A DNA stretch of 64,000 nt. Source: Marsupella aquatica. Lineage: Eukaryota > Plantae > Marchantiophyta. Made by a program: the position numbers and the translations under genes. Location of the stretch: the NCBI GenBank assembly GCA_973895155.1, contig OZ316899.1, positions 10,753,135 through 10,817,134 on the forward strand, written 5' to 3'. The notes below the pieces were generated by a model that searched no databases, was not told where the DNA came from, and saw only the letters and a list, made by a program, of their open reading frames with translations. Numbering within the stretch: the stretch's first letter is position 1; every line of letters starts with the position of its first letter. Positions 21,377-56,697 of the stretch are shown here, one piece after another.

Positions 21377-21805
21377 TTGCTTGGGGCTTGTAGAACTTAT
21401 GGTAATGTGGAGCTAGGTGAACAGGCCGCTAACGAGCTTTTCAATTTGGAACCCAGTAAGTCCTCTACATATGTGATGCTCTCCAATATCTATGCAGCAG
21501 CTGGGAAGTGGGAGAAGGTGGCATCTGTGCGCGCTATGATGCAAGAGAGAGGTGTTTGGAAGGAACCAGGACGTAGCTGGATTGAAGTTGATAACAAGAT
21601 CCATGAATTTGTTGTCGGGAATACATCTCACCCAGAAGTGGAGGCGATCTATACCGAGCTGAATAAATTGAGTGAAAAATTGAAGGCTGAAGGCTACATT
21701 CCGGATACCAAGCTTGTGTTGCATGATATTAATGAGGAGGATAAAGAGCTAGCTCTTTGCTCTCATAGTGAGAAGTTGGCTATTGTTTACGGACTTATGC
21801 AACAT
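21377..21805 (+). pseudogene. Fragment of a PLS-class PPR RNA-editing factor (E/E+ and first half of DYW domain)
   Basis: LLGACRTYGNVELG...YVMLSNIYAAAGKW...KEPGRSWIEV..HEF...HP...GYIPDT...HSEKLAIVYGL. No upstream PPR array, and no CxxC or DYW terminus. Confidence 0.88.
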
Positions 21806-26875: not shown

Positions 26876-29800
26876 TGTGATGCCTAGCCAGGAATCACTA
26901 GGCCAGTTTAAATGATAAAATAAGGAGTAAACCCTGGAAACACATTAGTGTAGTAGCAAAAATATGGAAAATATAAACAATTAAGGGTGGCTATGGAACC
27001 CAAGCAGAGGCCGGAAGTAAAAACGCCGGGGGAGGGAACACGATTAGGGTTAGGGTGTGCTAAGTGCTGGCGGTCATAGGTAACTAACGAGAAGGAAGAC
27101 CAGTCAGGGAGGGGTAAGGATCGATCGCAAGGAATGGCAGCTCATTTGCAAGCACGAACTAAGCAGACGACTACGGGAGGCCAACTACTGTCCGCTGCTC
27201 AGGCAAGCACTCGGGGTGGAAGCAGATACCAACAATCAACTCAAGAAGGGTATGAGCAACGTCAATCAAGCTGCTCATTTTTGGGGATGCCTGTTAGAAC
27301 GGGCAACTGAGTACATTGGGACCTACGAGGACGAAGAATTGGAGAGAGCCGCTCAAGAATGGCAGGAGCTTGCTCGACTGTGGGAGCTGCAAAAGTCTGC
27401 CTTCTTAGGAGGAGAACTCATTACGGCTGAATTCTTGTGGATGCCTACTGCCGACAAACTCGACAATCTTCTGTTTTGTGAGAATAGAATAGTCGGCATC
27501 TGGGAGGCCATCAACCGCTGCAACGACATACACTAGGAGTTTAAGGGTAGCACAGAGGGGTGGACGAAGGCAACCGTGCTAGGAGAAACATCCACAACAG
27601 CCGCTATGAAGAGGAAAGGGAACATCAATGAAGAGACCACCCCTGCAAAGAGAATGAGGTCGGCGGCACCAAGGAAGTAGGAGGCAGGAAGAAGCCGAAG
27701 AAGAGGAGGTCGAACCCATCAATGCCGTTCCAACAAGGGATGGTACCTGGAAAGGCTAGGCGGCGACCCTCCCCGAGGAAGTGCAATTACACTTTGCACG
27801 CGAAGAGGATGCATGCTTTACGGCTATGTAGACTCGGAAGTACTAGGGCTTCATGGCCGGATCCGGCTTGGAAGCCTTTGTAAAGTTACCATGGCTAAAG
27901 CCGGAGGTGCCGGATTCAGACTTATTAGAATTTGTGGGATCTTGGGAGCCCGAGACCAATTCCACAAGGTTGTATGGGAAAGAATTCTATCTCACTCCCC
28001 GAGTGATTGCCAAAGTGTTTGGCTTGCCGACGGGCAATAAGACCAAAGTAGATACCCGAAAGACCTTGCCAGACAAGGAGTTCCAATCGTTCCCAGGGCC
28101 ATCAACAAAGAATGGCTTATTTCAGAACACCTGCACCAACCCGCACATAGGAGAGATAATCGATTTCTTGCGGGTAACCATGCACTGCAACTTGCCGAGG
28201 CCAGAGATCGGCAAGGCAAGGTTTACCTGGTGGAGAGGCCAGACCCCAACCGTGACTACAACGGATACCTCCTCACCCAATTGAAGAAAATCTTGAAGGA
28301 GGAACAGTAGGTGATCGGCAAGGGAAGCGTGTCCCGGCTTGGCTATCATATGCCGCTGTTGTGCCGGTATGCCCAAAGTCAGATATTTGCCCCGGTACTT
28401 CCCCTGCAGGCAAGAGCACCAAAGGAGGTTCCGGAACTGAGGCCGGCAACAGAGAAACCAACCCAACCCGACAATCCTACAATTGAGCAGGTGTTTAGGC
28501 CGAGGAAGGAGGACTTGCCGATGCAGCAACCAGGCATGCAGAATCTGCTGAAATTGCTGGAGAAGGAAAGGAGAACGGCAACGGCAACGGGACCGGTACA
28601 GAATACTGCTCCCCAAGTTGGCCTAAGCCAACTTATCAGGGAAAACCCCTTTACCAGGGTCAAGGAGAGAAGGAGGCCGGAACATGAGCCGGGAGTCCAA
28701 ATGTATGTAGGAGCCTCAAGTCCCGAAGCCGAGGAAAAACAGCCCGAAGCTCCTGGTCGCGACAGGGAGAAGAAGAGATCAACGTGGAAGCCAGAGGAAC
28801 CAGGACCCGTGATCTGTGAGGCCGTGTTCACGGCAAAACCAGGAGAGTAGCGGGGGGAGCCGGTAGTCCAAGCCGCAGAGGAGGCGGTAGAAGGCTACAA
28901 ACATGATGACTCCGGCTACGGGTCCGACCATCATGTTCCAGGAGTAAGGACCTGTGGCAGGTTCATCCCCACTCTTCCAAGAGTAGTTTGAGGGGACCCC
29001 ACCCAGTAGAGCAGCCCCAAGTCTCCCCCACCAGATATTGCTCCCCCGAGCTTTGACGACATAAAACAGATGGCACAAGAGTTTCAGGAGCGACTCAAGG
29101 AGGAAGAGAAGGCAGCCTCGGCTAGGGAGAAAGATTTACCAGGGGGAGAATGGCCAGAGCACATCAGGCGGCTTGCAGAAAAACAAAGCATCCCTCCAGC
29201 CACGATAGAAGAAATCCGCAAGGCGGCTTGGGAACAAAGGCTGCAATGGTTGATGCCAATGACTTCTACTCACTCCGCCTATGCTAAAGAACGAGCCATG
29301 GAGTACGGGGAGATGTGTGGGGAACTTGCGCTCAACATCTTTGGGGAGGAGTTGGAGCAGGGACCCTTTTTCGAGAGGGAGATGTTGGAGAAGCACCGAT
29401 TAGAAGAAGCGGTGGCTTTGGAGAGAAGCAAGAAGGACGAGGTCATCCGTCGGCTTAGGGCAAGGGAAGCCGAGGTAGAAGACCTGAAGGCGGCCAAGAA
29501 AGCCCAAGATGAGCTGTGGATTAAGCGGCATGAGCTAAACATCATGCAGGGGCAATTGGATACCGCGCAGTCTGATAATCAGATTATCAAGGATAAACTG
29601 ACTCGGACCCAAGGAGAGTTGGTCGATGCGATCAAGGAGAAGGACAAGTGGAAGCAAGAGCTGAGAGACGCATAGGAGGCCCACATAGCAGCCAACAACC
29701 GGGCCATGGCGGAGACCCAAAGAAGGGAGAGGGCATTGAAGGGGGAGCTTGAGGATATCTACGGAGCCCTTGAGCAGAAGGAGGCCGAGTTAGGAAAATC

Positions 29801-31573
29801 CTATTAGGCGATCATTGTGCTATGACAGGAGCTCGCATCCATGACGGCCAGCTTCAAGGCCGACCTCCGTGAGAAAGATGACCAGCTCGACCAGACTTAT
29901 GCCAAGATGAATAAAATGGAGTCTGAGGTCATAACGAAGCTTGACAAGGAGCTAAGAGCAACCCAGGAAGAGAGGGCTACCTTAAAAAAGAAGCTGGAGG
30001 AAGCCCAAAGAGAGTTGGAGGAAGCCCAGAAGGAGCGGAGGAGGCGTGCAAGGACCTGGACGAATTGCAGGAGGAGTTGGAGGAAAGCATGCGGAAGATG
30101 GAGAACTTACAGCGGCGAGCCAACAACCAAACGGAGCGGCTGAAGAAATAGGCCACAGTATTTAAGTGCTTGGCTTCCTCAAGTCCAACTCCAATAGGGG
30201 CAACCAAGTTGCCAGGAGTAGTACTGGCTGAAGGACAAGCCGAGACACTCGCACCGGTGCTGGAGGTCAGTGGCAAGGGGAAGGGACCAGTTGCCAAAAC
30301 AAGGAAGAAGAAAAAGCGAAAACCTTTTGGGTCGGGGAGTAACACGGCTTCTCAAGCCATCATGACCAAGGAGGTAAACCCGGCACCAACCTCAGGCAGG
30401 GTCACGACAGAGGATCCAACTGTCCTACAAGGCGGGGATGGCAAGGATGAAGCCGGAATGCTCAGTGATGAGGCCGGTGTACCGAATCCACCACTAGAAC
30501 AGGCCGGGGAAGCCGTAACCATATTGGAGGCCGTGGCCGAGGGTGGACCCAGTTAGGCCGATGGAGAGTTCACTCGGTTTGGAGCAGGTAATCTGTCAGA
30601 GGACGGACCTACGGTAGTGGCTGCGGAGGAAGTGTTGGGGGCCTCCATTGAGGATCAGCCACCACTACCATGACGGTGGTGGAGGGCCGCTCCTTTTAAG
30701 GAGGGCGGACGTGGAGGGAGGAGGCGTGAGTGGGCAGGGTGGGCAGGGCGGGCTCAGATCTCCAAGTTTAGAATTAGGATCAGGACCAGGTTCGGCCCTG
30801 ACACTTAGCTTAGTGGGATTGCAGATCCACTGGTAAGAGCAACACTTGTGCTCCTGCCTTGCTGTACATAGGTAGATTACGGTCAGGTTAGATTAGGCTT
30901 ATGCTGCAAGGAATTGGGCGGATTCACTGCCAGGATAAGTACCTGGGCAGTGGGGGGGTTCAGGGCCTTCTTCCTTAGCAAGTTTTTAGTGCACCAGCAG
31001 GGCTGGGATCAAGTAGTTAAAGAAGCTCTCGGTTAGTTATGCTGTGACCCGTGTGTATATTCATGTTTCCTCATACTTAAGAGATGAATAGAGTTGGCCT
31101 CACGACTTAGTTCGCAGATCTTGTGTATGAGAAGTACTGTTTGTGTGGCAAGTGCATGTTATAACTCAGTCAGAAGGAGTCATTTTTCTATTTGTGTGTT
31201 GCATTAACTTGTTTGAAGATTGCCCACATCAACCAAGAAGGGAGTAAGCAAGGTAGTAAGAGTTGGATGTGTCGAGCTGAGAGAGGTCTTAGCGGCTTAC
31301 CCAAGCCAGTTGGGGATCATTCCGGCGGCGGAATCCAAACATACCTAAAGGGAGACCAGGAGAGGAGGACAATGGAAGGCATAGAAGAGGCCGGCTTCAC
31401 ATCTCATGACCCAATGAAGGATCTGTCCAGTATATGTGTGTAAAATGTTAGTCAAAGTTAGCAGCATCTCATGCCGCTAAGCTGCGAAACCGGCCTCGCC
31501 AAGAGCGAAACCTGCGGGAATCTGCTTGTGGAGGGGGGTTTCTTGGGTTCAGGGAGCCATGGGACGCACCACA
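26876..31573 (+). mobile_element. Solo LTR of family A (older subfamily) with decayed LTR ORF, inserted in the CACTA element
   Basis: TGTGATGCC...GCACCACA; flanks GAACA/AAACA (5-bp TSD, one mismatch). ORF fragments match the 1212-aa protein. Confidence 0.93.
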
Positions 31574-35975: not shown

Positions 35976-37263
35976 GAGCATCTCCAACGGTTTGGAGATT
36001 TGTGGTCCCTATCCCCATCATATGGCGGGTGAAATGGCGCCTGCCAAAATGGAGAGTCACCTTACTTTAACGCAATCCCCACTAGCAACACCCCATTTTG
36101 ACCTCCATCCCATATGCGCGTGTCCAAACTGGGGCCCACAACTGTGGGGAGGATTCTCACACGCGTTGGATTCACTTTAGTTTGGTGTGAAGTGAACCCT
36201 CTGTTTCTTGCAGACCTCGACTCACGAGACCTCGACTCACGAGACCTCGACTCACGAGACCTCGACTCACGAGACCTCGACTCACGAGACCTCGACTCAC
36301 GAGACCTCGACTCACGAGACCTCGACTCACGAGACCTCGACTCACGAGACCTCGACTCACGAGACCTCGACTCACAAGACCTCGACTCACGAGACCTTGA
36401 CTCACATTTTGACGCAACAGAGGTCGGAGAATGCATGTTGATTGTGCAACTTCATTTATTTTTTTCAAGTGATTTGTGTTGTGTGCTTGCCCTTGCTGCC
36501 GCCTTCAAATTAATGCAGAGCAAGGTTTTCCAGGTATGTTTGGTTCATTGGATTGCATGCATTGGCCATGGAAGAATTGTCCTGTTGCTTGGCAAGGCCA
36601 ATACAGTGACAAGGACAAAAACAAATCCATCATATTGGAAGCAATTGTTGATCAAGAATTGTGGATTTGGCATGCCCCTTTTGGGCTGGCTGGGGGAAAT
36701 AATGATCTAAATGTGCTTGACTGATCACCACTTCTAAATGAATGGTTGCATAATGATTTGGCCAATGTCAGTTTCCATGTCAATGGTACGGAGTACAAAC
36801 GAGCTTATTTGCTGGTGGATGGAATTTATCCAGAGTGGTCCATGTTCATATCCACTGTGCCATGTTCATATCCACTGTGCACATGCCACAGTCTGATAAG
36901 TTGAAGCATTTTGCAAGATGTCAAGAGGCAGCAAGAAAAGATGTGGAGAGGGCATTTGGGGTCCTCCAAGCTAGATTTGAGATAGTGAAGAGGCCTGCCA
37001 GGTCTTGGTACAAAAAGAACATTGTAAATATTTTGCTTGCTTGTGTCATCCTCCACAATATGATTGTTGAGGATGAGAGAGATGAGAATTTTCCTCCATA
37101 TTTAAGGGTTCCTGCAGCAAGAGTGAATAGGGGAAATCTGCCATGGCTGGAGTTCCTTGCTGCAACAGCTAAAATTAACAACAAGGCTAACCATTTCTGG
37201 CTGAGAAATGACATTGTTGATCACCTTTGGAATAGAAAGGGGTCTGGTCTTTCTGATCACTGA
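35976..37263 (+). mobile_element. PIF/Harbinger DNA transposon remnant with decayed DDE transposase
   Basis: TAA followed by the TIR GAGCATCTCCAA. Motifs GFPGMFGSLDCMHW.WKNCP, NNDLNVLD, DGIYP, RKDVERAFGVLQARF, ACVILHNMIVEDE. Stop at ~36722 and a 20-bp duplication at 36841-36880; 3' TIR not seen. Confidence 0.92.
36212..36406. repeat. 15-bp minisatellite (AGACCTCGACTCACG) x13
   Basis: Directly visible, with only a few single-base variants in the last units. Confidence 0.97.
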
Positions 37264-37549: not shown

Positions 37550-39654
37550 TGGTGCTTGACTTTGTGGTCTAGAGGACGTACCCACAATTTTTTGATTATT
37601 AGCATTGCTAGGAGGCAATCAAACATGGAAGAGCAAAAGAAGAATGGGAAACCATGGGCACCTCCAACGAAGGTGACAGGAAAGGAGGCAAGCAAGAAAA
37701 CACCACTGTTGATGAAGCTCATGGAGTTTGAGCCCGATCACCCTTCAATCTCCCTCTGCAGCTCGTTGGCCTTCTGTTGGGATATAGAGCCACACAACGC
37801 ATGCTGGGCGGTTAAATCCTTCAACTCTTCACCGAGTTTCCGCCGGATGCCTTGCTTGTGTCGTAGCTGCTGGTCCATCCGCTAGATGGCTGATTTTGTC
37901 TTTCGGACCTCAGCTTGTAGATCTGCTTCCCCTTCTTTGGTGGCGGCCATGCGCTGGCCCCATTCTTCCTCCTTGTCAGCCAGTAGCTTTTGCAGCTTCC
38001 CTTTCTCTTGCTGAGCTTTTCCTAGCTCAATCTTTAGAGCTAGTGTCCCAACCATCCACTAGATGGCTGATTTTGTCTTTCGGACCTCAGCTTGTAGATC
38101 CGCTTCCCCTTCTTTGGTGGCGGCCATGCGCTGGCCCCATTCTTCCTCCTTGTCAGCCAATAGCTTTTGCAGCTTCCCTTTCTCTTGCTGAGCTTTTCCT
38201 AGCTCAATCTTTAGAGCTAGTGTCCCAACCCTCTTGGTTCGGACTTCCTCCTGGGTCTTCTGTAGGACCGTGGTTGCCTCCTTGTACTTCTGCCTCTCTT
38301 GATCCATCAATCCTTCTATTTTTGTCATCTGCTTCATCATGATCTTGTTGGAGTCAGACTTCTTCTGTACTTTCTTGAGGAGTCATGCAACCTTCTCTTC
38401 CAATTCGCTCAACTTGTCTATGTTACCAGTCTTGCCCTCTGACTCCAAAATTATTATCCTTGCCATTGCCTTGGCTTCTTTCAAATCCCTCAACCAGTAG
38501 TAGAGGTCCTTGGTGTTGGGGACTGGCTTTCCTATAAAAGCCAGACGCTGAGCAAAAGTCTTCAATTCCGCTAGGTTAGTATTGTCCGGGAGTTTGGACA
38601 ACATGGTTTGCTGGAAGGTGGCTTCCCTCCTCTCTTCTTCTTCTTCCTCTTCTTTGTCTTCTTCATCGGGGAGGTTCACCGCCCTCCTCTTTCTCTTGAG
38701 GCTTGTACGACATTGTTTGGCGTGCTCGCTCAGGTTCCGGAGAGCCTCTGCTCCTCCTTCACTTTCTGCATCTGAATTTAGGGGTGCTTCCCCCTCTTCT
38801 TCCTCTTCATTGTCTTCAAAATCCTCCTCATTGTACTCTGGTGAATCCACATTGACGTTGGCTGTGGATCCCAATGCCGTCCCAACCGGTGTTGTCCAAT
38901 GGGCCGCTCCTTGACCTTCTGGCTCCGATTCATCCGAGTGTGAATCGTCCGATGGAGCCCTATTGATCGCCTCCTGGGCACCAAACACATTGTGCACTAT
39001 GACTCACAACTGATAGGCTAACAGCAAAGGGAATTTTGGACAGCCCTTCAAATCGATCATAGCAGATACATTGCCTTCCATAACTGAAGCGGGTGGAGGC
39101 ATCCCACAAACAGAGCTCTTGTGGTGGTAATTCTTGGAAAGGTGGCGTGATGGTATCCGCTCTTAACCATCACCCACTTGGTGCAAAACTCTATAAAGTT
39201 CCAATACTCCTTTTGCTGGATGGCCCCATACTGCATGTTTTCGCGGTTTATCCGGACCTCTGTCTGTTGCAAGAAGGCCGCCACGCCCTCTTTCTCAATT
39301 GGGTTGACTTGGTAAGCAAATGGTAATCCTCCCGCCCGTGGTAGTTCGAACATGTCGCATAGCTTTGGATTGGAGAAGGTATAAGTCTTCCCTCTGTATG
39401 TAATGAACATTCCCTTGGGCGACATGGTCACCTTCGTGATTTGCAAGCAAATTTCTCTTGCTTGCATGGTTGATAGATAACGGTCCATCCGGACCAAGCC
39501 ATAAATTCTGGCTCAGTCTGTCGAGTATTGCTCGACTTTCCTCAATGCGTTGTACCTCTATGACGGAGTTGCGGAGATTCTCCTCTGCCGATAGGGCTCC
39601 CTTCTTGTTCTTAGCGGGGGGAACCTCTGCTCTTTGTGCTCCTGTTCCCTCCAT
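37550..39654 (-). pseudogene. Decayed transposon accessory ORF (family C): plant-transposon-like domain + acidic tract + coiled coil
   Basis: ITYRGKTYTFSNPKLCDMFELP resembles RIYGKDFYLTPKVIAEVFGLP. Followed by an E/D-rich region, KRKRR and a heptad-rich tail; frameshifts and stops. Confidence 0.55.
37875..38228. repeat. 177-bp tandem duplication (59 codons) in the family C coiled coil
   Basis: 37875-38051 and 38052-38228 are nearly identical. Confidence 0.95.
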
Positions 39655-40099
39655 CTTTGCTCAAGAAAATTAGTAACGCAAGCAAGTAGCAAGTGGACAG
39701 TTGCGTCACGATCTAGCTTATGCCTTTATTGAAAGGGAGATTTGATGAGTGCGCGATTGCTTTGTGAGGCGAATTGAGCTTGCCTTACTGCCTTAAGCTC
39801 CCAGATCTTCCTTGCCACGGTCTGTGAATGTCCGGAAGGCGGGATGGTCCTTGTCTTGTGAGCATGAGGGGTCTTAGGGAAGTGCCCTATTGATGATGGC
39901 CCTCGTTGCGGTATTATTCTGGGGGCTACTTAAAATTGCCTTCCACTTATGACTTAGTGAAGGCACGGCACCTGACGTTGTTGTGTACGCTGCGCCCGCT
40001 TGTTATGACTAGAGGTGGTACTTTAAGTACTATTTATGGCTATTCCAACTGTATTAGGGTAATGATGGTGCTTTACTAAAATGACAAAAAAAGATCAGG

Positions 40100-40740
40100 G
40101 TTTGCACAGGCCGCACAATGTGCTGATATGCCCTCCGCAAAACCTCAGGTGGCATCAAGTTGGTCCACCATAATCGTGGCCGATGTGCTGTCAATTCGAC
40201 ACTAGCAGCATCTAAAAAAACAGCAGGTCCTAACGAGGACCTCACTTGGTGCATACTAGCCACCATCTGTGACCTAGTATCACCCAATAAGGGAACATTC
40301 TCCAGAATGTAGGTGGGAGAGACATGCTGCTTCACCTGCAAAAACCTCATGACATGCAGCATCTTCCAAAACATGGGAGAATGATGGTCTTTGAGACCAG
40401 ATCTTGTCCCAATCCCGGTCCCAATAGAGGAATGGCCCTGGCATGACCAACCAGCAATCACAAGGTGAATCTCACCAATGCGTACTAAATCCGACACCCC
40501 CAAAAGTGAGATGTCTGCTAGCAAAGCGTGCTGATAACCTCTAATAGTTGATAGGGGCAACAAATCAGGGAATTGCTGATGCAACTGAGCAACATGACGC
40601 AGTGAGACACATCGGGCTGTGTCATCTCGCTCCACATAGAGATACTGATGCACTCTAATACCAACATGTAAGACAACAACTAAACCAGTGCTCATGCCAC
40701 CAAACAACTCCAACAAGCCAATACCCTTAGTAGGGTATGT
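40100..40740 (-). pseudogene. Truncated intronless C5-cytosine DNA methyltransferase, DNMT3-like
   Basis: Motif I LLELFGG, motif II YVE, motif IV LVIAGWSCQG (TCA is one transition from CCA/Pro), motif VI ILENV, motif VIII AHRPRLWWTNL. Motifs IX-X are absent. Confidence 0.85.
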
Positions 40741-41270
40741 CCAAAAATGGGAGTGGTGTCCAACGGGGACATAGTGATCAAACTAGGAATGTCATCCCCC
40801 ACCTGTGGCTCCTCTAAAGGGACAAATGGTGCACGCCAAGTTGCCTATACCTACAAATCAGCATGTTGCTGTAACTCAGGAGTGGAACCCCATACCTGTG
40901 GTACAACCATTAGTAGAAATCGGGGCATTTTAGACCAAACCTTATAGGACTAAGGCCACTAAGTCCTTTTTTGCAACTTTAAATGACTCAGAACCATTGC
41001 ACCGGTTCACATGAACACTACAAACGACTGTGAGTGCTTTTTGGTTTAGGATAAGACTAGGAAAAGTTTCCACCCTACTTTGTGACCTATTGTGCACACT
41101 CTAGCACATGATGGGTTGTCCTTGCATTGTGTTGCGGGCTTTAATTTGATAATGGGCATATGGGGGGGTTGCACTACTCATTTGGGACCTCTTTACCAAC
41201 ATCCCGCTATATTGAACACTTACACACTCAGTACATGATGAGATGCCCTAATGTCTCATATACTCCATAG

Positions 41271-41530
41271 TGGGTTTAGGGGGGGTTTAGGATCTTTGGG
41301 TGGGCAGGTTATATGTGAAGGGTGTGGGGGGCCACCACTAAAGGGGGTTTAGGGGGGTTTATATGTCAAGGGTGGACCAGTTAGGTCTCAAGGGGGTGGG
41401 GGTCAGTAAAGGGGGTTTATATCTCAAGTATGTGCCGGTTATATGTCAAGGGTGTGGGGGGTCACTAAAAGGGGTTTAGGGGGGTTTAAATGTCAAGGGC
41501 GGGGGGCGGGTTACAGCTTTCAGGGGGTGA
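41271..41530. repeat. Degenerate G-rich tandem repeat with TTTAGGG-like motifs
   Basis: About four imperfect units such as AAAGGGGGTTTAGGGGGGTTTATATGTCAAGGGTG. Confidence 0.75.
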
Positions 41531-41631
41531 GGGGCTTATGCTTCACTCAAGCCCCATTGGATGGAGTCCATCCCCACCATCCAAAATCTGTGGTTACATA
41601 CCCAAGATGGCCATGCAGTGACACTTTGTAG

Positions 41632-44269
41632 TGTGATGCCTAGTCAGGAATCACTAGGCCAGTTTAAATGGTAAAACTCAGGAGTGTACCCTGGAAACAC
41701 ATTAGTGTAGTAACAAAAACAAGGAAAATATAAATAATTGAGGGTAACTATGGAACCCAAGCCAAGGCCGGAAGTAAGGACGTCGGGGGAGGGAACACGA
41801 TTAGGGTTAGGGCGCGCTAAGTACCGACGGCTATGGGTAACTAACGGGAAGGAAGACCAGGTAGGAGGGGGGTAAGGACCGATTGCAAGGAATGATGGCT
41901 CATTTGCAAGCACGAACTAAGCAGACGACTACGTGAAGCCAACTACTATCAGTTGCTTAGGCAAGCACTCAGGGCGGGAGAAAATACCGACTATCAATTC
42001 AAAGAAGGGTATGAGCAACGTCAATCAAGCTGCTCATTTTTGGGGATGCCTGTTAGAATGGGCAATTGAGTACATTGGGACCTACAAGGACGAAGAATCA
42101 GAAAGAGCAGCTCAAGAACGGCAGGACCTCGCTTGACTGTGGGAGTTGCAAAAGTCTGCCTTCTTAGGAGGAGAACTCATCACGGCTGAATTCCTGTGGA
42201 CACCTACTGGCGACAAGCTAGACGACCTTCTGTTTTGCGAGAATAGAATAGTCGGCATCCGGGAAGCCATCAACCATTGCAACGACGCACACTGGGAGTT
42301 GAAGGGTAGCACAGAGGGGTGGACGAAGGCAACCGTCCTCGGAGAAACATCCACGGCAGCAGCTATGAAGAGGAAAGGGAACAACAATGAAGAGACCACC
42401 CCTGCAAAGAGAATGAGGTTGGCGGCACCAAGGAAGCCAGCCGAGCAAGGGAGCAGGAGGCAGGAAGAAGCCAAAGAAGAGGAGGTCGACCCCATCAATG
42501 TCGTTCCAACAAGGGATGACACCTGGAAAGGCTGGGCGGCGACCCTCCCCGAGGAAGTGCAATTACACTTTGCACGTGAAGAGGATGCATGCTTTATGGC
42601 TATGCAGACTTGGAAGTACCAAGGCTTCATGGCCGGATCCGGCTTGGAAGCCTTTGTGAAATTACCATAGCTGAAGCCGGAGGTGCCGGATTCAGACTTA
42701 TTAGAATTTGTGGGATCTTGGGAGCCCGAGACCAATTCCACAAGGTTGTATGGGAAGGATTTCTATCTCACTCCCCAGGTGATTGCCAAAGTATTTGGCT
42801 TGCCGATGGGCAATAAGACCAAAGTAGATACCAGGAAGACCTTGCCAGACAAGGAGTTCCGGTCATTCCCAGGGCCATCAATGAAGAATGGCTTCTTTCG
42901 GAACTCCTGCACCAACCCGCACATAGGAGAGATAATCGATTTCTTGCGGGTTACCATGCATTGTAACTTGCCAAGGCCAGAGATCGGCAAGGCACAGGTC
43001 TACCTGGCGGAGAGACCAAACCCAAGTCGGGACTACAACGGGTACCTCCTCACCCAACTTAAGAAGATCTTGAAGGAGGAACAGCAGGTGATCGGCAAGG
43101 GAAGCATGTCCCGGCTTGGCTATCACATGCCGCTCTTGTGCCGGTATGCCCAAAGTCAGATCTTTGCCCTGGTACTTCCCCTACAGGCAAGGGCATCAGA
43201 GGAGGTTAAGGAACAGAGGCTGGCAGCAGAGAAGCCCAACCAGCCCGACAGTCCAACACTCCAACAATCGAGCAGGTGTTTAGGCCGAGGACGGAAGACT
43301 TGTCGATTCAGCAACCAGGCATGCAAAATTTGCTGAAATTGCTGAAGAAGGAAAAGAGGATGGCAACGCCAATGCCAACACCAATGGCACAGGTACAGGA
43401 CACTACCTCAGAGGTTGGTCTAAGCCGACTCATGAGGGAAAACCCCTTTACCAGAGCCAAGGAAAGAAGGAGGCCGGAACATGAGCCGGGGGTTCAAATG
43501 TATGTAGGAACCTTGAGTCCCAAAGTCAAGGGAAGACACCCTAAGGCTCTTGTTCACGGGAAACAGAGGGAGAAGACAGTCTGGAAGCCGGAGGAGGAAC
43601 TAGGACCTGGGAGCTATGATCGGCAAGAGGCCATGTTCACAGCAAGACCAGGAGAGCAGTGAGGGGAGTCAGTAATCCAAGTTGGGGAGGAGGTGGTGGA
43701 GGACTACAGCAATGATGACTCCGACTACGGGTCAGACCATCATGTCCCGAGAGTAAGGACCTGTGGCCGTTTCATCCCCACGCTTCCAAGAGTAGTTCGA
43801 GGGGACCCCACCCAGCAGAACAGCCCCGAGTCTCCCCCACCAGATGTCACTCCCCCAAGCTTTGACGGAATAAAACAGATGACACAGGAGTATCAGGAGT
43901 GACTCAGGGAAGAAGAGGAGGCAGCCCTGGCTAGGGAGAAGGATTTACTTGGGGGAGAATGGCCAGAGGACATCCGGCGGCTTGCAAAAAGACGGGGCAG
44001 CCCTCCAGCCACAAAAGAAGAAGTACGGAAGGCGGCTTGGGAACAAAGGCCGCGGTGGTTGATGCCGATGACTTCTACTCACTCCACCTATGCTAAAGAA
44101 AGAGCCATGGAGTACGGGGAGATGTGTGGGGAACTTGCGCTCAGCATCTTTGGGGAGGAGTTGGAGCAGGGACCCTTTTTCTAGAGGGAGATGTTGGAGA
44201 AACGCCAATTGGAAGAAGCGGTGGCTTTGGAGAGAAGAAAGAAGGACGAGGTCATCTGATAGCTTAGGG
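41632..44269 (+). mobile_element. 3'-truncated family A LTR with decayed ORF
   Basis: Starts TGTGATGCC; homology stops after ...KKDEVI at ~44269. Confidence 0.92.
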
Positions 44270-45884
44270 AGAAGGTCGCCGAGCCCTCACCAATCACCTC
44301 ACAGCACTCACGCTTAAGTGCCCTTGGTGCCCAAATGCCTCCACAGAATACCTCGAGCAAGCAACCTAGTGTCCCTTGCACCGCTAGCGGCCCCTCCCAT
44401 ACCAAGCCGCACTTACTCTCTAACACGACTGCTACTCAACGGTCCTCCCTATCTGCACAAGCAACCAAGCACCTCGGTAAGTAACCCTTCAGGATCTAGA
44501 ACTCGCCAAGTCTAGCATCCTAACTCAAGCTCAACAGACGTTGGTAAATAGGTCAGCGATAGGTCCTCCCGATGCCATAAGCCAGAACCAGAACCCACGC
44601 CCACTGTTCATCCAGAACAACTTCTTCCTTGGGCGCAGCCCGGGTTCCTCCTCGTACCTATCCATCACCAACTGACTACCCTGACCTCAGGACATGCTCA
44701 TGGCCCCATTAGCGTAGCTTGTCCTAAAGCTTGTCCCAAGCTTGTCCCAACACGCCAGGACCAGAATAGCCCCGACTCTAGCAACCGCTCCCGGTTTGCC
44801 CCACTGGGTGGTCTAGGGGCCGAGCACCCTTGGGACTCAGCCTCCGCACCTACTTGGCCTTGCCTCCCCAACGCAAGCTCCCTTGGGAGACTGAACGCGG
44901 CTTGGCTATTGTTCGGCAGGATTCGGCAAGCGGGCGAGCTAACACCCACAAACCACAAGAACTCACGGCACCCCCAGACCCAGTTGAGCTCAGGAGGACG
45001 TAGCCCTCCTCAAGAACTTTCAACGCACCCAAGAAGTCCTCCAACGGACTTCCCGTTGTGAAGATATCACCATTTCTGTTTGGCGGTTTCCCTTAGTGTC
45101 GCGACCGCCGCGGCTCACAACTTCGGCTCGGCCTTAGCCCCCAGGGAGACACCGCTCCCCTCATATATGCTTCTGGAGACCTGCCACCACCAGACCAGCT
45201 TTGGTCCCAAAACATTTGGCCCCCAACCCGGATCCCATCGCGCATAATGGGCGCGCCATGAACTGGCAACGCCCATAACTTTCTTGATAGGCATCCGCAA
45301 GCGGAGTGCCTTAGCCCGTTGTGACCGGGCCAACCCAGTGCTCATGCCTAGGCCGTCAGGTCTAATCGCCGCTTGGGGCCCCCGACCGGCCCAACCCGGA
45401 TCAGGCCACAACTTGCGCCCCAAGCGTCCATTGCCAATGGCGTCAACTCCATTGGCCTTGGGCCCAAGAGGAGCTCACTCCCAAGTCCTCAAAAATCAGA
45501 GTCCATCCGGAGGTCCGGACGGCCACCCTTGAGCCCGGCCCATTTCCCTTTGACCCGACCAGCCATCGGCTAGTCCAAGTCCTTAGTGTGTGCCCCCAGC
45601 TTGGCTCCTTGCCTCGCTAGTGCCACATCTCATTGCCCACAAGTCTCCCTATGCTAAGTCCTCCCCGGATGGCCTATCCGGGCCTGGACCATAAAGGAGC
45701 TCGACATTGGAGTCAGCAATGTAGGAGCTAAAGGTTAAGGTAGTCGAGTTCCGCGACTCTTACCTAGAACTAAGCATACCACGGTTAGACTCAAGACCAA
45801 CTGCCCAACCGCCTTACCTACCTAAGGGACTATATGTATCGGATGAGAATGAATGGAAGAACTGATTGTCAATGAGCTATAACA

Positions 45885-46750
45885 CGTTATCAGCACGAGG
45901 CTCCTTTTTTTGCTGCTGTCGACCGTTCACAAATTAAAATTTCTTTTCCAGAGGACCCTTTGGTGAAAGCTCTCGATACGGATTGCAGCGGCAACGAAAA
46001 CAATGCCGACCAATTGAGAATCAAGGACTCAACCTCATACACTAAAAATCAGACTCGCAAAAATCATAGTGGACAACCAAAAGCTTAGACAATTAATCAA
46101 TTGGATTACCCGGAGATCACACCAGAGCACATACATCGCGGTTATCAGACTCAAATCACAGAGTATTCACGATAAATTGAAATAGGATGTCTATACCCAC
46201 CAATTCTATCGAGAAACTACTATTCCAACCTCTCAGCATAGATGGCGCCAACTACTTATCCTGGACCTTGGACGTCGAGGCCCACCTCGCAGCTAAGGAA
46301 CTCTAGGACACGATCATCACAGATGCGGGAACTACACTACCGCAAAAGGCAAAAGCCTTGATATTAATTTGACACCATCTATGCGACCTTCTGAAGAAGC
46401 AATATATGAACGAATTTAATCCCTGGATACTCTGGGATGACCTCCAATCCCATTTTGATCACATTTGGACCATCTACTTGCCAGCAGCACGACACGACTG
46501 GATTAATTTGCGAGTCCAAGATTATAAGACGATCGTTGACTACAACAGCGAGCTATTCAAAATTGTAGCACAATTGGCAATTTGCGGACAGCCAGTAAAC
46601 AATGTCGAGCAAATCAAAAAGATGCTATCCACTTTGCATTCCGCCAACCTAATACTTTCAACGCAATACCGCAATATGGCCTTTACCAAATACTCCAAAC
46701 TAATTGCCCACATGCTCCTGGCGGAGAAGCATCAGCTCTTGTTACTACAG
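45885..46750 (+). mobile_element. Ty1/Copia (Bianca-type) remnant: PBS and decayed gag
   Basis: ...ATAACA|CGTTATCAGCACGAG matches the Bianca-type PBS pattern. Gag motifs DGANYLSWTLDVEAHL, QKAKALILI.HHL, ARHDWINLRVQDYK..DYNSELF, STLHSAN...QYR. Truncated at ~46750. Confidence 0.8.
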
Positions 46751-48827
46751 ATGTGGAATGGTAAAAAGTAACTATGGAGTGAAAGTGATCCATTTTAAAA
46801 CATTTTAACCTTACTTGAAGTTTATTTAGGTTTATCCGTCACCCCTTAATCCATTTTAAGCCTCAAAGGAATGTTATGGAAGAAAGCTAAGAAGTTTGAG
46901 TTAGGAAGGAGGAATCGCTTCGGACAAACAATCACTTTCGAAGAAGTCCAAAAGAAATTGCTTTGGGAGGAAGCAGAAGAATTGCTTTGCAGAAAGACCG
47001 GCTGAAGAATCGCTTTGGAAGTTGGAAAATCGGTTTAGACTTTCGGCAGCAACTTTGACGGACGATTGCGGATCGGTCCGATGTTGTTTTGAGGAGATTT
47101 TTGGTGCGTTGGAAAGCTCTTATCAAGGGCTATAAGGAGAATTTCAGTTTGGTCCCAAAAGACCAACTTCAGAATAACCCAAACCGATTCTCCAAGTTTT
47201 TTTGGCATATGTTACTTAAATCATTTTCTATCTCTTTTCTCACCTCTTGAGCCTTTCCATGAGTTAGATAGAGTAGGATATAGAGGGACATAGTTTAGTG
47301 TACCTTTAGGAATTAGATTTAGAGAGTCTTAGACTTATTTTACCTTTTAGGACCCTAAGTTTAGATGAGAAAAGGTTTTTAGGCTTCTAAACCTTTTGGC
47401 ATCTCAAACCTTTTGAGGGAGCCTTACAAGTGGACTCCCAAGACCATGATTCATTGTATTTTTTTCAACATTGATATTTGACCAAGTGTGGGTCTTTTTC
47501 TCGTGCCAAATTGGGCTTAGGAGAAAGAGTTTAATGGAGAAGACTTGTACCACTCACATCAATTGAATTTCAAACATTTCATGGATCAAACTTAAGTATT
47601 CAAGTTTTGATGTTTGAATTAGTTGTAGGTGTAGTTTGCTATGAAGAACCAAAAACACACTTAATGGTCTTCAAACTCGGTATTCGTTCCCGTAAAGAAC
47701 AAGATGGGGTTGGTTTGATAGATTTAAACAATAATAATAGACTGAAGATGTTTTCCACACATAGTAATCAAGTTTGATTACTTTACTAAGGTATTTTGAA
47801 GATCGCTCCACAGCGGTGAGAAGTTTTCAATGATAACTCAACATCATGTAAACATAAATTAATGAAAAGGGAACGATTAACAAAATCACAGGGAAAAATA
47901 TCTTAAAGTATGCTAAGGGAGTCTGGAATTGACCAAGGTTGCTCCTTAGACATAAGTCAAAATGAAAAGACTTAAGGATTCAAATCCACGTTTGCTTTTC
48001 AGATCTAAACTGCTTACTAGAGTACTCTTTTAAAGTGCCGTCAACACGTCTCTTTTTTTTCTAAGTGGTACTCAGACAAGATCTAAAAGAGTGACTACTT
48101 CAACATTTAGATGGTACTAAGCAACACGAAAGAAAATCCATCAAATTCATTAAAACATAAACTCAATGAGTTAACTCTAAGAACTCAGGAGATTGCAATG
48201 AATCACCAAAAAGGAATCTATCATCACAACTCAAAAGATTTGCATAAAAGGAATTTTACTTCCTGTGTTTATAATCATAGGTTAAAACACAAGGAGGTAA
48301 GTCTCTCCAAATGTTAAACCTGATCTCGAACTCATAGATTCATGATCAACTAGTTTAACACAAAGAAGAGGCAAAAATGCACAACTTTACCATAAACTAC
48401 ACTAGTGGTGGAGGGGTCTTGTAGTAAAAATCTACAGAGTGAGAGGTCATAAGGTCGAAGAGACATGCCTCTTTATACCTCTCAAAAAGCTAAAATGGCG
48501 ATTCAGTAAGTGAAAAGCCGGAAAAATGGCTAAGTCTGAACTCGTAAACTAGTAAACTCGTAAAAACGTAAAGTTGTAAAGACGTAAACTCGTAAAGTCA
48601 TGAACTCGTAACTCGTAATTGCGGTAAAGTAAAGACTTAGCAAACTCAACTATTTTTAACTTCCTAAATATGAGTAAGAAAACTCCGAGGTTTTGCCAGC
48701 AGGCTTTCCTAGGTACAGTCTATATACTAAAGAAGTATGATAGCTTCCAAAGCTCTAGAACACATTTATAAAAATCAGATGAGATGCACTACTCCTAAAA
48801 CTAACTAAAAACACTTAGAAAACTTCT

Positions 48828-51800
48828 TCAAGCTTGCTGTTGGATGTCCTCTGGTTCTAGTAACTCCACAAGGGTAACAGTCCGATTCCGTGTAACCTCC
48901 ATCAACTCAGTTTGGCGTGGGGATCCTCGGGAGTAAGGTAGGCATCTTAGTTGTCTCTCAGGATACATTAGAGGCATTCTCTTCATTAAATAACATGAAT
49001 CTATACGAAGAGCTTCTCTATACATCCCAATTACATCATAATTGTTGCAAGAAGCAGCATATACTAGGGGATAATGGTACAGGAACTCATCACTATTCAT
49101 CATCCTGGAATAGAAAGGTCAAAGCCTCCATCTGACATCTCTAAAGTACCGGTTGAAGTGGGTCAGGGTCTGAGTAGTGACATTGTTCCAGATTCTCTGT
49201 TTCTCAGCTAATGAACTGGTTGAAACAAGGGTAACTTTGGGTTCTTGAGGGATGTAATCATGTTGTAGAGCAGTAGACTTCTTGCTTTGCATCAGGAAAG
49301 AAACGACAAAATCCAGGGCATAGGCTGCAAAGTTTCCAAAGTATGCCAAAACTAAATCTGAATCCTCTACCTCTACATCACCTTGAAGTAGCATCATAGC
49401 AAGAATAGGCCGGAAGTAGACAGAGTCGGTCTAGAACTCATCAAATTGTGCCATCTCAACTCTGGAAGTCCCAAAACACCTCAGGTCAAAAATGTAGCTG
49501 GCCTCTGTTTTCTTGAGATAGTAGTATCTCCAAAACTCTCCAACCGGTGGTCTGTTGGCCTGCATAATCTTACAGGTCTCTACATACCTGCATACTTGGA
49601 ACTCTGGAGGTCTCGGGTATCTACTCTCGATGACAGCATTTCGGGGTGTGATGCCTAGCCAGGAATCATTAGGCTAGTTTAATTAGTAAAATCAGGAGTG
49701 TATCCTAGGAAACACCTTAGTCTAGTAACAAAAATAGGGAAATATAAACAATTAAGGGTGACTATGGAACCATGGCCGAGGCTGAAAGTAAGGATGCCGG
49801 GGGAGGAAACACGATTAGGGTTAGGGCGCGCTAAGTACCGGAGGCCACCAACAGGAAGGAAGAGCAGCCAGGGGGGGTAAGGACCGAGCACAAGGACTGG
49901 CGGCTCATTTGCAAACACAAGCCAAGCGGACGACTACGGGAGGCCAACTGCTGTCCGCTGCTCAGGCAAGCACTCGGAGTGGAAGCTGATACCGACGATC
50001 AACTCAAGAGGGGTATGAGCAACGTCAATCAAGCTACTCATTTTTGGGGATGCCTGTTAGAATGGGCAACTGAGTACATTGGGACCTACCAAGACGAAGA
50101 ATGGCTCGAGAACGGCAGGAGCTCACTCGGCTGTGGGAGCTGCAGAAGTCTGCTTTCTTAGGAGGAAAACTCATTACGGCTGAATTCTTGTGGACGCCTA
50201 CTGCTGACGAACTCGACGATCTTCCATTTTGTGAGAACAAGATAGTCGGCATCCGGGAGGCCATCAACCGCTGCAACGACATACACTAGGAGTTGAAGGG
50301 TAGCACGGAGGGGTGGACGAAGGCAACCGTGCTAGGAGAAACATCCACGGCAGCCGCTATGAAAAGAAAAGGGAACAACAACAAAGAAGCCACCCCTGCA
50401 AAAAGAATGAGGTCGGCGACACCCAGGAAACCAACAAAGTAGGGAAGCATGAGGCAGGCGGAAGCCAACGAAGAGGAGGTTGACCCCGTCAATGCCGTCC
50501 CAACAAGAGATGACACTTGGTAAGGCTGGGCGATGACCCTCCCCGAGGAGGTGCAATTACACTTTGCACGGGAAGAGGATGCATGCTTTACGGCTATGCA
50601 GACTCGGAAATACCAAGGCTTCATGGCCGGATCCGGCTTGGAAGCATTCGTAAAGTTACCATGGCTGAAGCCGGAGGTGCCGGATTCAGACTTACTGGAA
50701 TTTGTGGGATCATGGGAGCCCGAGACCAATTCCACAAGGGTGTATGGGAAGGATTTCTATCTCACTCCCCAGGTGATTGCTGAAGTGTTTGGCTTGCCGA
50801 TGGGCAATAAGACCAAAGTAGATACCAAGAAGACCTTGCCAGACAAGGAGTTCCGGTCATTTCCAGGGCCATCAACAAAGAATGGCTTCTTCCGAAACAC
50901 CTGCACCAACCCGCACATAGGAGAAATGATCGATTTCTTGCGGGTGATCATGCATTGTAACTTGCCGAGGGCAGAGATCGGCAAGCACAGGTCTATCTGG
51001 CTGAGAGGCCAGACCCGAGCCGAGACTACAACGGGTACCTCCTCACCCAACTAAAGAAGATCTTGAAGGAGGAACAGCTGGTGATTGGCATGGGAAGCGT
51101 GTCCCGGCTTGGTTATCACATGCCGCTGTTGTGCCGGTATGCCCAAAGCCAGATATTTGCCCCGGTACTGCCCCTACAAGCAAGAGCACCAGAGGAGGTT
51201 CCGGAACTGAGGCCGACAATAGAGAAACCGAACCAGCCCGACCGTCCTACAATCAAGCAGGTGTTTAGGCCGAGGAAGGAGGACTTGCCGATGCAACAAC
51301 CAGGCATGCAGAATCTGCTAAAATTGTTGGAGAAGGAAAGGAGGACGGCAATGGGGCCAGTACATAATACTGCTTCCAAAGTTGGCCTTAGCCAACTTAC
51401 TAGGGAAAACCCCTGTACAGGGGCCAAGGAGAGAAGGAGGCCGGAACACGAGCCGGGAGTCCAAATGTATGTAGGAGCTTCACGTCCCAAAGCCGAGGAG
51501 AATCAGCTCAAGGCCCCTGGTCACGACAAGGAGAAGATGAGATCAACGTGGAAGCCGGAGGACCCAGGACCCGTGATCTGTGGGGTTGTGTTCACGGCAG
51601 GATCAGGACAGTAGCGGGGGGAGCTGGTAGTCCAAGCCGAGGAGGAGGCGGTAGAGGGCTACGACAATGATGACTCCGGCTACGGGTCGGACCATCATGT
51701 TCCAAGAATAAGGACCCGTGGCAGGTTCATCCCCACTCTTCCAAGAGTAGTTTGAGGGGACCCGACCCAGCAGAGCAGCCCCGAGTCTCCCCCACCAGAT

Positions 51801-54800
51801 GTCGCTCCCCCGAGTTTTGACGGCATCAAACAGACGGCATAGGAGTTTTAGGAACGACGCAGTGAGGAAGAGGAGGCAGCCCTGGCAAGGGAGAAGGATT
51901 TACCAGGAGGAGAATGGCCGGAGGACATCCGGCGGCTTGCAGAAAAACGAAGCAGCCCGCCAACCATGATAGAAGAAATTTGCAAGGCTGTCTGGGAACA
52001 AAGGCCGTGATGGATGATGCCGATGACTTTTGCTCACTCCGCCTATGCTAAAGAAAGAGCCATGGAGTACGGGGAGATGTGTGGGGAACTTGCGCTTGCA
52101 TCTTTGGGGAGGAGTTGGAGCACGGACCTTTTTTGCAGAGGGAAATGTTGGAGAAGCACCGATTAGAAGAAGCGGTGGCTTTGGAAAGAAGTAAGAAGGA
52201 CGAGGTCATCCGTTGGCTTAGGGCAAGGGAAGCCGAGGTAGAAGACCTGAAGGCGTCCAAGAAAGCCCAAGATGAGCTGCGGATTAAGCGGCATGAGCTC
52301 AACATCATGCAAGGGCAATTGGATACCGCGCAGTCTGATAATCAGATTATCAGGGATAAACTGACTCGGACCCAATGTGATCTAGCCGATTCGATCAAGG
52401 AGAAGGAGAAGTGGAAGCAAAAGCTGAGAGACACAATGGAGGCCCACATAGCAGCCAACAATTGGGCCATGGCGGAAACTCAGAGAAGGGAAAGGGCGCC
52501 GAAGGGGGAACTCGAGGATATCCGCGGAGCCCTTGAGCAGAAGGAGGCCGAGTTAGGGAAATCCTATCAGGCGATTATCGTCCTGTGGCAGGAGCTCGCA
52601 TCCATGACGGCCAGCTTCAAGGCCAACCTCCGCGAGAAAGATGACCAGCTCGACCAGACTTATGCCAAGATGAATCAAATGGAGTCTGAGGTCATTGCGG
52701 AGCTTGACAAGGAGCTGAGAGTAGCCCAGGAGGAGAAGGCGACCTTAAAGAAGGAATTGGTGGAAGCCCAAAAGGAGCGGGAGGAAGCGCGCAAGGACCT
52801 GGATGAATTACAGGAGGAGTTGGAGGAAAGCACGCGGAAGATGGAGAACTTACAGTGGCGAGCCGACAACCAAACGGAGCGGCTGAAGAAACAGGCCGCA
52901 GTATTTAAGTGCTTGGCTTCCTCAGGACCAACTCCAATTGGGGCAACCAAGTTACCTAGTGTAGTACTGGCCGAAGGACAAGTCGAGACACTCGCACCGG
53001 TGCCGGAGGTAAGTGGCAAGGGGAAGGGGCCAGCTGCCGAACCAAAGAAGAAGAAGAAGCGGAAACCTTCTGGGTCAAGGAGTAATACGGCTCCTCAAGC
53101 CGGCGTGACCAAGGAGGTAAACCCAACACCAGGCAGGGTCACGGCAGAGGATCCACCTGCCCTAGAAGGCGGGATGATGAAGCCATGGCTAGGATACTCG
53201 GTGATGAAGTCGGGGTACCGGATCCATCACTAGAACATGTCGGGGAGGCCGTGGCCGATGCTGAGGCCGAAGCCGAGGGTGGACCCAGTCAGGCTGATGG
53301 AGAGTTGACTCGGTCAAGAGCAGGTAATCTGTCAGAGGACGGACCTACGGTAGTGGCTGCGGAGGAAGTGTTGGGGGCGTCGATTGAGGACCAGACACCG
53401 TTGCCATGACGGTGGTGGAGGGCCACTCCTTTTAAGGAGGGCGGACGTGGAGGGAGGAGGCGTGAGTGGGCAGGGCAGGCTCAAATCTTCAAGTTTAGAA
53501 TTAGGATCAGGACCAAGGGGCGGCCCTGACACTTAGCGTAGTGGGATTGCGGATCCACTGGTAAGAGCAACACTTCTGCTCCTGCCTCGCTATACATAGG
53601 TAGATTATAGTTAGGTAGATTAGGCTTACGCTGCAAGGAATTAGGCGGATCCACTACCAGGATAAGTACCTGGGCTGCGGGGAGTTGAGGGCCTTCTTCC
53701 TTAGCAAGTTTTTAGTGCACCAACAGGGCTGGGATCAAGTAGTTAAAGAAGCTCTCGGTTAGTTATACTGTGACCCTTGTGTATATTCATGTTTCCTCAT
53801 ACCTAAGAAATGAATAGAGTTGGCCTCACGGCTTAGTTCGCAGATCTTGTATATGAGAAGTACTGTTTGTATGGCAAGTGCATGGTATAACTCAGTCAGA
53901 AGGAGTCATTTTGCTATTTGTGTGTCGCATTAACTTGTTTGAAGATTGCCCACATCAACCAAGAAGGGAGTAAGCAAGGTAGTAAGAGTTGGATGTGTCG
54001 AGCTGAGATAGGTCTTAGCGGCTTACCCAAGCCAGTTGGGGATCATTTCGGCGGCAGAATCCAAACATACCTAAAGGAAAACCGAGAGAGGAGGACAAGG
54101 GAAGGCCAAGAATAGGCCGGCTACGTATCTCATGACCCGATGAAGGATCTGTCCAGTATATGTGAGTAAAATGTTAATAGCAATAGTAGTAGAAGGAAGT
54201 TAGCAGCGTCCCATGCCGCTAAAGCCGTGAAATTGGCCTCACCAAGAGCGAAACCTACGGGAATCGGCTTGTGAGAGGGGTTTCTTGGGTTTAGGGAGCC
54301 ATGGGACGCACCACACGGGGGGTCTGAGTAGATGAGGTGACGACTGCTACTAAGTTTGGATTGGATCTTAAGGCAGTGTCAACATCTTCAAACCCTTGGC
54401 TTGGTGACGGTGTTAAAGAGTTGTCATAAGATCGAATGGAATTAAAATCAGAGGGTGGGTCAGAATCTTCAGGTAGATCCTCTCAAAAATAAGGATGCTC
54501 ATACTATGACTGATTGTAGGGTGGTCCTTCTGTGGGTTTGTAGTTGGAATCAGGACTGTAAGGGTGGGAACTTGGACTAGGAGAAAGTGTAGCAGTAGGA
54601 CATCGCTGCACTAAGTTGCTGATTGCAGATGTTATCTGTCGAGGTTCACACTAAAGCATTTCTAGTAATTCATCCACAATAGCTGCACAACTGATACCCT
54701 CTGTCACTAGAATGGGGTCACTTAGTTTTAGGAGAGGGACCTGTTGGGTAGCAGGGGTGAGAGTCACAAATTCCGTTGGTGCTGATTCTCTTGGGGGAGA

Positions 54801-56243: not shown

Positions 56244-56697
56244 AGCTCTAATCTATTCTGTCGAGTGCGCAAAGAAGTGGGGAGGCTGATAGAATCAATG
56301 GAGGAGGCAGGAATTTAGTCAAGAGTGAGCGCCCGAGTCTACATTGTCTTCTTTTCAAGTCGCGCTCTTCTTCTGTTGTGGAGTCCCGTTAAAACTAGCC
56401 GTAAAATGTCGCGGTCACTGGTCGCCAACTCGTAAGGCATAACTCTTAGTCCTAACTCGTAAACCCGTAAATCGTAAACTAGTAAACTAGTAAACTCGTA
56501 AATGGAGTCTACTTGTAAACCCGTAAATTGTCAACTCGTAAACTTGTAAACAGGAGTTTACTTGCAAACTTAAACTTGAGAACCCGTAACTTGTAGACAG
56601 AATGCTATCTCCGCTATGTTAGCAATAATTATAGTCTAAACACCATAAAAAAATTAAAAAAATTCAGTTTCTTCCTACTTTTGGAATTACCCACTAC

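Follow-up and report, generated by a model that had tools for sequence, protein, structure and literature searches.

A short methyltransferase fragment in the 64-kb window (the whole stretch of DNA that we analysed) is almost certainly an internal piece of a multi-copy Ty3/gypsy element, in whose relatives a DNMT3-like cytosine methyltransferase (DNMT) domain lies behind Gag and protease (PR). In the full explanation, which we hold with good confidence, the fragment itself is dead, and the DNMT3-like domain that the relatives carry fused to Gag-PR likely methylates the element's own cDNA in the particle. The initial annotation had read it as what is left of a retrotransposon that carried a DNMT in a land plant, and the polyprotein linker, the multiple copies and the colinear relatives described below all bear this out. 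Elements of this kind are already known from algae in the literature that we found, and what is new here is a land-plant member. DNA methylation is the main means by which plants silence transposons, and an element with its own methyltransferase reverses the usual silencing relation.

The methyltransferase fragment and its surroundings

The fragment occupies 40106-40907 on the minus strand, about 800 bases in all, and its methyltransferase domain is encoded by an open frame at 40782-40054 (minus). Motifs I, II, IV, VI and VIII, which had been reported in canonical order, were all located in this frame and in that order (Table 1); in the relatives, motif X comes last. A DRM identity is ruled out by the non-permuted order. 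The best homologue in a protein search had an E value of 1.5e-74 and 63% identity, and all 28 matches in a sequence search of the PDB were DNMT3A or DNMT3B (best, DNMT3A, E 1.8e-7); Pfam PF00145 scored 19 bits, under its cut-off of 22. Among proteins of near length, 86 of 425 candidates were relatives, the top one at 62% identity over 95% of the query, and the six with names come from Calypogeia fissa (three), Sphagnum (two) and Marchantia paleacea (one). Longer homologues made up 23 of 1444 candidates, including 10 gene models of Marchantia polymorpha, two of Calypogeia and two of Sphagnum. Since the alignment to the relatives is continuous and free of gaps apart from one 4-residue insertion after motif IV, the fragment is without an intron, as first proposed.

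Table 1. Features of the methyltransferase fragment and its borders (window positions)
Feature	Position	Strand	Basis
Family C ORF, broken, then acidic and coiled-coil stretches	37740..39654 (left end approximate)	-	Frames; ORF start 39654
Junction of DNMT fragment and family C element	40095..40106	.	Contig ends at 40106; family C copies end at 40091-40095
DNMT3-like C5 cytosine methyltransferase domain, motifs I-VIII	40106..40743	-	Motifs and homologue alignments
Motif VIII, AHRPR	40188-40174	-	Read in frame
Motif VI, ENV	40302-40294	-	Read in frame
Motif IV, AGWSC	40455-40441	-	Catalytic Cys present, Ser before it
Motif II, YVERD	40638-40624	-	Read in frame
Motif I, LLELFGG	40716-40696	-	Read in frame
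Protease-DNMT linker remnant of Gag-PR-DNMT polyprotein	40746..40907	-	tblastn to relatives
Junction with high-copy repeat	40907..40908	.	Contig ends at 40906-40907; depth jump at 40842-40995; motif scan

When the long relatives were compared with the window by tblastn, the DNMT matched at 40743-40108 and 50 more codons matched at 40895-40746 in a different frame. The linker part (54 codons) shows 33-48% identity to 10 of the 11 long relatives tested in this way, and the linker 5′ of motif I matches polyproteins only. A frameshift near 40745 lies between linker and DNMT, and the linker remnant has in-frame stops at 40853 and 40847. Thus, the DNMT fragment of the initial annotation stands but its limits do not, because homology continues upstream to 40907, past the frameshift and both stops. 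The change of Pro-Cys to Ser-Cys in motif IV is private to the window copy, as every other aligned copy has Pro before the Cys (7 contigs in run X1 and 23 in run X4). The reported loss of the C-terminus was also found, with homology ending at 40106 and motifs IX-X absent. Because these motifs are missing, the window copy is unable to make an enzyme, judging from the conserved C5 methyltransferase fold, and it is dead. No gag, protease, DNMT C-terminus or end repeat of the element was found elsewhere within the 64-kb window. Near 40897, the stretch TGTGGTAC looks like the first part of the B repeat found in the relatives (see below); it lies on the opposite strand, inside the linker, and we regard the resemblance as chance.

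The fragment is one decayed copy among several of a multi-copy element. Other DNMT copies, in contigs of two organisms, run beyond 40106 and 40907 and keep Pro-Cys. Contigs diverge from the window at 40106 (four each in runs X1 and X4) and at 40906-40907, and by eye their loose ends resemble the DNMT continuation and the linker of the relatives. Summed contig depth does not equal copy number and was used solely as a sign of several copies; a check for a single-copy fragment thus came out on the multi-copy side, with several distinct copies in contigs. The fragment is extremely unlikely to come from a host DNMT3 gene, whether as a processed pseudogene or as a captured set of exons: it is intronless and DNMT3-like, and true DNMT3 genes do exist in bryophytes (PMC6453930), but it carries a polyprotein linker, is multi-copy, and is 55-66% identical to retrotransposon DNMTs while being weakly similar to animal DNMT3.

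The fragment had been placed on the same strand as, and about 450 bp upstream of, the family C ORF, and we measured 452 bp from the end of DNMT homology at 40106 to the family C ATG. The two had been suggested to form one element with two chromatin-related genes. Such a composite, mobilising both, would suit their shared strand and short distance and the fact that both are multi-copy, but we consider it very improbable, as tblastn found family C in none of the 80 relative loci, the DNMT is broken off mid-domain, and among the contigs listed, DNMT copies leave the window at 40106 and family C copies at 40091-40095. The upstream flank match of the other family C copies ends there at an A-run, which may contribute. 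A difference-free contig in runs X1 and X2, which may derive from the same source as the window, spans 39483-40135 and so reaches 30 letters past the break, one under the bridging rule. Family C is therefore likely a separate element outside the DNMT retrotransposon, since it is absent from 80 of 80 loci and the copies of both families diverge at the junction, which is what the initial annotation had allowed for in saying that the truncation may mark a junction. The idea of two chromatin modules in the element survives in altered form: a second module exists in the relatives, but it is a PHD finger on the integrase and not family C. Pfam had no match in family C at 39060-39512, and ESM Atlas features place the ORF near clusters of Transposase_32/Athila accessory ORFs (0.92-0.94), which we treat as a lead only.

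On the other side, the first bases of the repeat at 40908 resemble what we take to be a CACTA transposon end, and a motif scan found no partner end for this CACTA-like terminus. This high-copy repeat runs from 40908 to 41630, with G-rich sub-repeats at 41301-41502. The window copy has lost both of its ends amid a pile-up of other elements.

Several other elements lie in the window. One Ty3/gypsy element has 4.6-kb LTRs at 1014-5639 and 11864-16489 (+) that are 99.85% identical, and each LTR contains one intact ORF of 1217 aa (1075-4728 and 11925-15578) that belongs to no known family; so long an ORF inside an LTR is unusual. It has a polypurine tract ahead of the second LTR, solo copies at 26876-31573 and 49647-54315 (one of these solo LTRs with an exact 5-bp duplication), and a cut copy at 41632-44283. 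After the second LTR, at 16489-19984, there is a further gag (a tandem LTR-internal-LTR-internal arrangement), broken at 17293, and beyond it are LINE-like RT frames at 18129-19984. A PPR E/DYW-domain piece lies at 21299-21868 (+), whose PPR-DYW part at 21374-21802 shares 83% identity with Calypogeia fissa proteins and roughly 70% with Ceratodon among the best 120 of 553 matches. On this basis, a leafy liverwort is the likely host of the window. A PIF/Harbinger-type transposase piece (PF04827, PF13359) at 36757-37263 (+) adjoins a 15-bp tandem array at 36212-36405, a Copia-type gag piece (PF14223) lies at 46373-46771 (+), and a second decayed Ty3/gypsy gag-pol occupies 55147-62393 (-), with a downstream ORF without a Pfam family.

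Anatomy of the element in its relatives

To describe the element beyond the fragment, we used the best 80 of 124 loci from a metagenome scan. These loci were chosen by motif IV and VI patterns, so motif conservation among them is biased. The majority are Sphagnum-like, with a median of 79% identity to a protein from Sphagnum, and the window's nearest relative, L001 (66% identity), is also the nearest with a complete domain and is without both ends. No relatives were found in viral contigs among 79 pattern matches. In the relatives from Marchantia, Calypogeia and Sphagnum, the layout is gag-PR-DNMT, a stop, and then RT-RH-INT-PHD. Where the flanks of the loci are long enough, the upstream side usually carries the linker (71 of 74 loci), protease (62 of 66) and gag (35 of 40), and the downstream side usually carries the DNMT C-terminus (71 of 73), RT (46 of 49), RNase H (39 of 42) and integrase (29 of 32). 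The linkage to RT and integrase, which was to be sought by TBLASTN, is thus seen in relative loci rather than in the source organism, and the window itself contributes the PR-DNMT linker. Pfam recovers zf-CCHC, DNA_methylase, RVT_1, RT_RNaseH and integrase in L001, and the integrase domains of the relatives are rve and H2C2. A PHD finger (PF00628) sits at the integrase end, with E values of 1e-8 to 1e-10 in the three of three tested and presence in 24 of 25 loci; like the end repeats and target duplications below, these counts come from Sphagnum-like copies. Marchantia polymorpha has near-identical full-length Gag-PR-DNMT frames; a single 90% cluster contains at least five of its gene models, which are 1278-1281 aa long.

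A stop in the RT frame lies at one site between DNMT and RT in 50 of 51 loci. DNMT and RT are in the same frame in 40 of the 51, and the others have decay indels. The ORF1 proteins of Marchantia, Calypogeia and unnamed sources terminate at about the equivalent position. The stop is followed by CAACCC in 44 of 50 pattern-matched sites (46 of them distinct) and by CAACCA in L001, which we take to resemble the CARYYA readthrough context; our literature search found no paper on a CARYYA readthrough motif. We think it somewhat probable that RT-INT is made via occasional readthrough, and because RT-INT would arise in this way, DNMT would be present at the level of Gag, in many copies per particle. 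The Sphagnum-like copies have an ATG two codons past the stop, which allows re-initiation in place of readthrough; this ATG is absent in L001. Under readthrough and re-initiation alike, DNMT is tied to Gag and not to RT-INT. In some distant relatives, a single frame holds both DNMT and RT. The protein P0094, in which DNMT is fused to RT, omits the stop region and is probably an artefact of the gene model.

The ends of the Sphagnum-like relatives are DIRS-like split direct repeats (the window copy and L001 are without ends). A repeat A of about 340 bp stands at the 5′ end, and the 3′ end consists of a polypurine tract, a 115-bp repeat B, A, and B again. The full A...B-A-B arrangement is present in L062, L063, L066 and L075 (L063 and L075 being one insertion), and B-A-B 3′ ends are present in L028, L073 and L077. 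Seven loci have only A...B, the product expected if the two B repeats had recombined. The termini of the element are TGTC..GACA, and in six loci the internal B/A joint reads as two ends with two bases between them. At L063:14517-15086 and similar loci, this joint thus looks like joined element ends in an element of the integrase type. Target duplications of 4 bp are exact in six of nine distinct insertions, have one mismatch in two and are absent in one. A DIRS/PAT tyrosine-recombinase identity is ruled out by the rve and H2C2 integrase and the 4-bp duplications. In the five loci inspected, we saw no tRNA primer site following the first A. We suppose that the internal B/A junction would template both termini during reverse transcription.

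Relatives among green plants and known systems

The DNMT trees comprised retrotransposon-type rows, without host DNMT3. In these trees, the window copy groups with L001/P0260 among polyprotein DNMTs (support 96/97), and three sampled Sphagnum-like loci join Sphagnum proteins (100/96). The DNMT copies of Sphagnum join those of Marchantia and Calypogeia (97/94, unrooted) to the exclusion of the window copy, a hint of either transfer between bryophytes or old paralogous subfamilies.

A HMMER scan returned 237 proteins at E <= 1e-30, and among the best 150 of these, 147 were new. From the positions of RT, INT and PR, on which the layout labels rest, 44 of the 147 have RT before DNMT, 25 have integrase after DNMT without an intervening RT, and 15 have either a preceding protease or a following RT; the remaining 63 are too short for a layout call. 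An unrooted 89-row tree sets 21 rows with DNMT before RT, including the window copy, against 68 others (SH-aLRT 95). Name look-ups covering 20 of the 147 placed Klebsormidium nitens GAQ93235.1 and two Closterium proteins in the first group and a Scenedesmus sp. 'pol' in the second. GAQ93235.1 falls within the window's 21-row group (SH-aLRT 95; unrooted, on a long branch), has the domains CCHC-protease-DNMT, and is colinear with Marchantia Mp4g09160 over protease, linker and DNMT (29% identity, 569 columns, E 2e-54). The relation to Klebsormidium retrotransposon DNMTs that had been raised is thus supported by both colinearity and grouping. The Closterium layout is the same as the bryophyte one. 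In the Scenedesmus relatives (P0292, P0437) and about 68 unnamed proteins, DNMT instead lies between RNase H and integrase, and most of these bear PHD. Pfam found RH before DNMT in 20 of 25 chosen proteins and PHD in 15 of the 20 RH-DNMT proteins. The RT tree, which has one outgroup and an open fork, separates both layouts and fits either one capture with relocation or two captures. No chlorophyte case of a DNMT-bearing Ty3/gypsy element appeared in the literature examined.

Because the K. nitens protein is colinear with the Marchantia one, comparison of the sequences makes it very likely that the bryophyte element is the KnitGypsy-Dnmt3 lineage in land plants. KnitGypsy-Dnmt3, whose acquisition was assigned to the K. 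nitens lineage (de Mendoza et al. 2018, PMC5890265), shares with the element described here an intronless, non-permuted Dnmt3-like domain in a Ty3/gypsy polyprotein, DIRS-like repeats together with gypsy domains, and purifying selection. The CCHC-PR-DNMT order is also the same in GAQ93235.1, which is presumably one of that paper's copies. It differs in that the hosts here are land plants (liverworts and Sphagnum), the DNMT here ends the Gag-PR ORF at a conserved stop where the paper has a continuous Pol, and the K. nitens and window domains are 27% identical; the PHD finger, 4-bp duplications and B/A junction go unmentioned in the accessible text of PMC5890265. SymbioDIRS-Dnmt3 and SymbioLINE-Dnmt likewise encode a C5 methyltransferase in a retrotransposon, but they are dinoflagellate tyrosine-recombinase or LINE elements with an independent capture (PMC5890265), and here the integrase is DDE. 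Host plant DNMT3 (PpDNMT3a/b; Yaari et al. 2019, PMC6453930) has the same canonical motif order and DNMT3-type fold but is multi-exonic in K. nitens (PMC5890265), whereas the DNMT here is intronless, Gag-protease-fused and multi-copy; land-plant DNMT3 has a domain of unknown function (PMC12344493). Chromatin-reader retrotransposons such as chromoviruses, PHD-bearing elements and CopiaMBD (PMC6673714) also carry a reader on the integrase end, but here the reader (PHD) and a writer (DNMT) are in one element.

The word Marchantia does not occur in the main text of PMC5890265, nor do Marchantia, Sphagnum or bryophyte in three of its supplements, the main Supplementary Information being outside this check. 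PMC12344493, citing that paper, says 'streptophytes and dinoflagellates'. The accessible text of PMC6453930, PMC9033089, PMC11982613, PMC8616336 and PMC6673714 holds no land-plant case, and we found no land-plant description of a DNMT-bearing element in the literature covered, which leaves aside subscription journals, Repbase and the supplements of PMC12344493.

A broader reading, which we offer tentatively and rate a little below even, is that one ancient green-plant Ty3/gypsy lineage with a writer (DNMT3-like) and a reader (PHD) extends over chlorophytes, Klebsormidium, Closterium, liverworts and Sphagnum, with the DNMT between RNase H and integrase in chlorophytes and relocated behind Gag-protease in the others, a readthrough stop in bryophytes, tRNA-primer-free priming, split repeats and a DDE integrase. 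Many de novo methyltransferases in Marchantia would then be mobile, and their annotation as host genes would be wrong. If inheritance was vertical, the capture predates land plants. Counts of DNMT genes in bryophytes include transposon copies, which is a warning for annotation.

Proposed role of the methyltransferase

In the mechanism that we propose, the protease would release DNMT from the Gag polyprotein, and the freed DNMT would methylate new cDNA in the particle before integration, so that copies would enter the genome pre-marked; the PHD finger would steer the integrase to chromatin. We regard this cDNA self-methylation with PHD-guided integration as evenly balanced. The idea of cDNA methylation was put forward by de Mendoza et al. 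2018 (PMC5890265), where function was left open, with a negative yeast test for the sole green example: the K. nitens domain produced no methylation when assayed in yeast, a result called inconclusive there. Since this lineage also occurs in Marchantia polymorpha, the question can be put to the test in a genetic model for which methylation mutants exist.

A lesser but serious possibility is that, in the same element, DNMT serves to bind DNA or RNA or as a decoy, or acts in trans to methylate host chromatin, instead of methylating the element's cDNA. The negative yeast assay of the K. nitens domain (PMC5890265) agrees with this, a structural function would suit expression at the level of Gag, and RNA binding and host-beneficial damping are among the options listed in PMC5890265. 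Glu-Cys is also frequent in motif IV of the distant relatives, in which the residue before the catalytic Cys is Glu in 38 and Pro in 26 among 89 rows. Against it, 79 of 80 scored sequences retain the catalytic Cys, 73 of 81 retain ENV and 77 of 81 retain FGG (pattern-biased for motifs IV and VI), and the Dnmt3 domains of Symbiodinium DIRS elements methylate CG de novo (PMC5890265). A full fold is also predicted for the L001 domain (pLDDT 73, pTM 0.78), and when this model was compared by VIA-align with 48,161 chains, it matched DNMT3B at Z 16.5 (rmsd 5.2, 260 aligned), DNMT3A at Z 16.3 and M.MpeI at Z 13.5.

Selection on the domain was measured by dN/dS. Values for DNMT, which between lineages favour the proposed explanation, were 0.08-0.38 between the window copy and five loci and 0.14-0.17 between L001 and four Sphagnum-like loci, with dS near saturation in both comparisons. 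Among 75 decayed Sphagnum-like copies, dN/dS was 0.58 for DNMT versus 0.36 for RT, which, like the near-saturated dS, weighs against it. A phage-like ancestry of the domain is conceivable: phage C5 methylases are 26-29% identical (eight records), and in Atlas features two phage clusters are level with the streptophyte cluster at 0.96.
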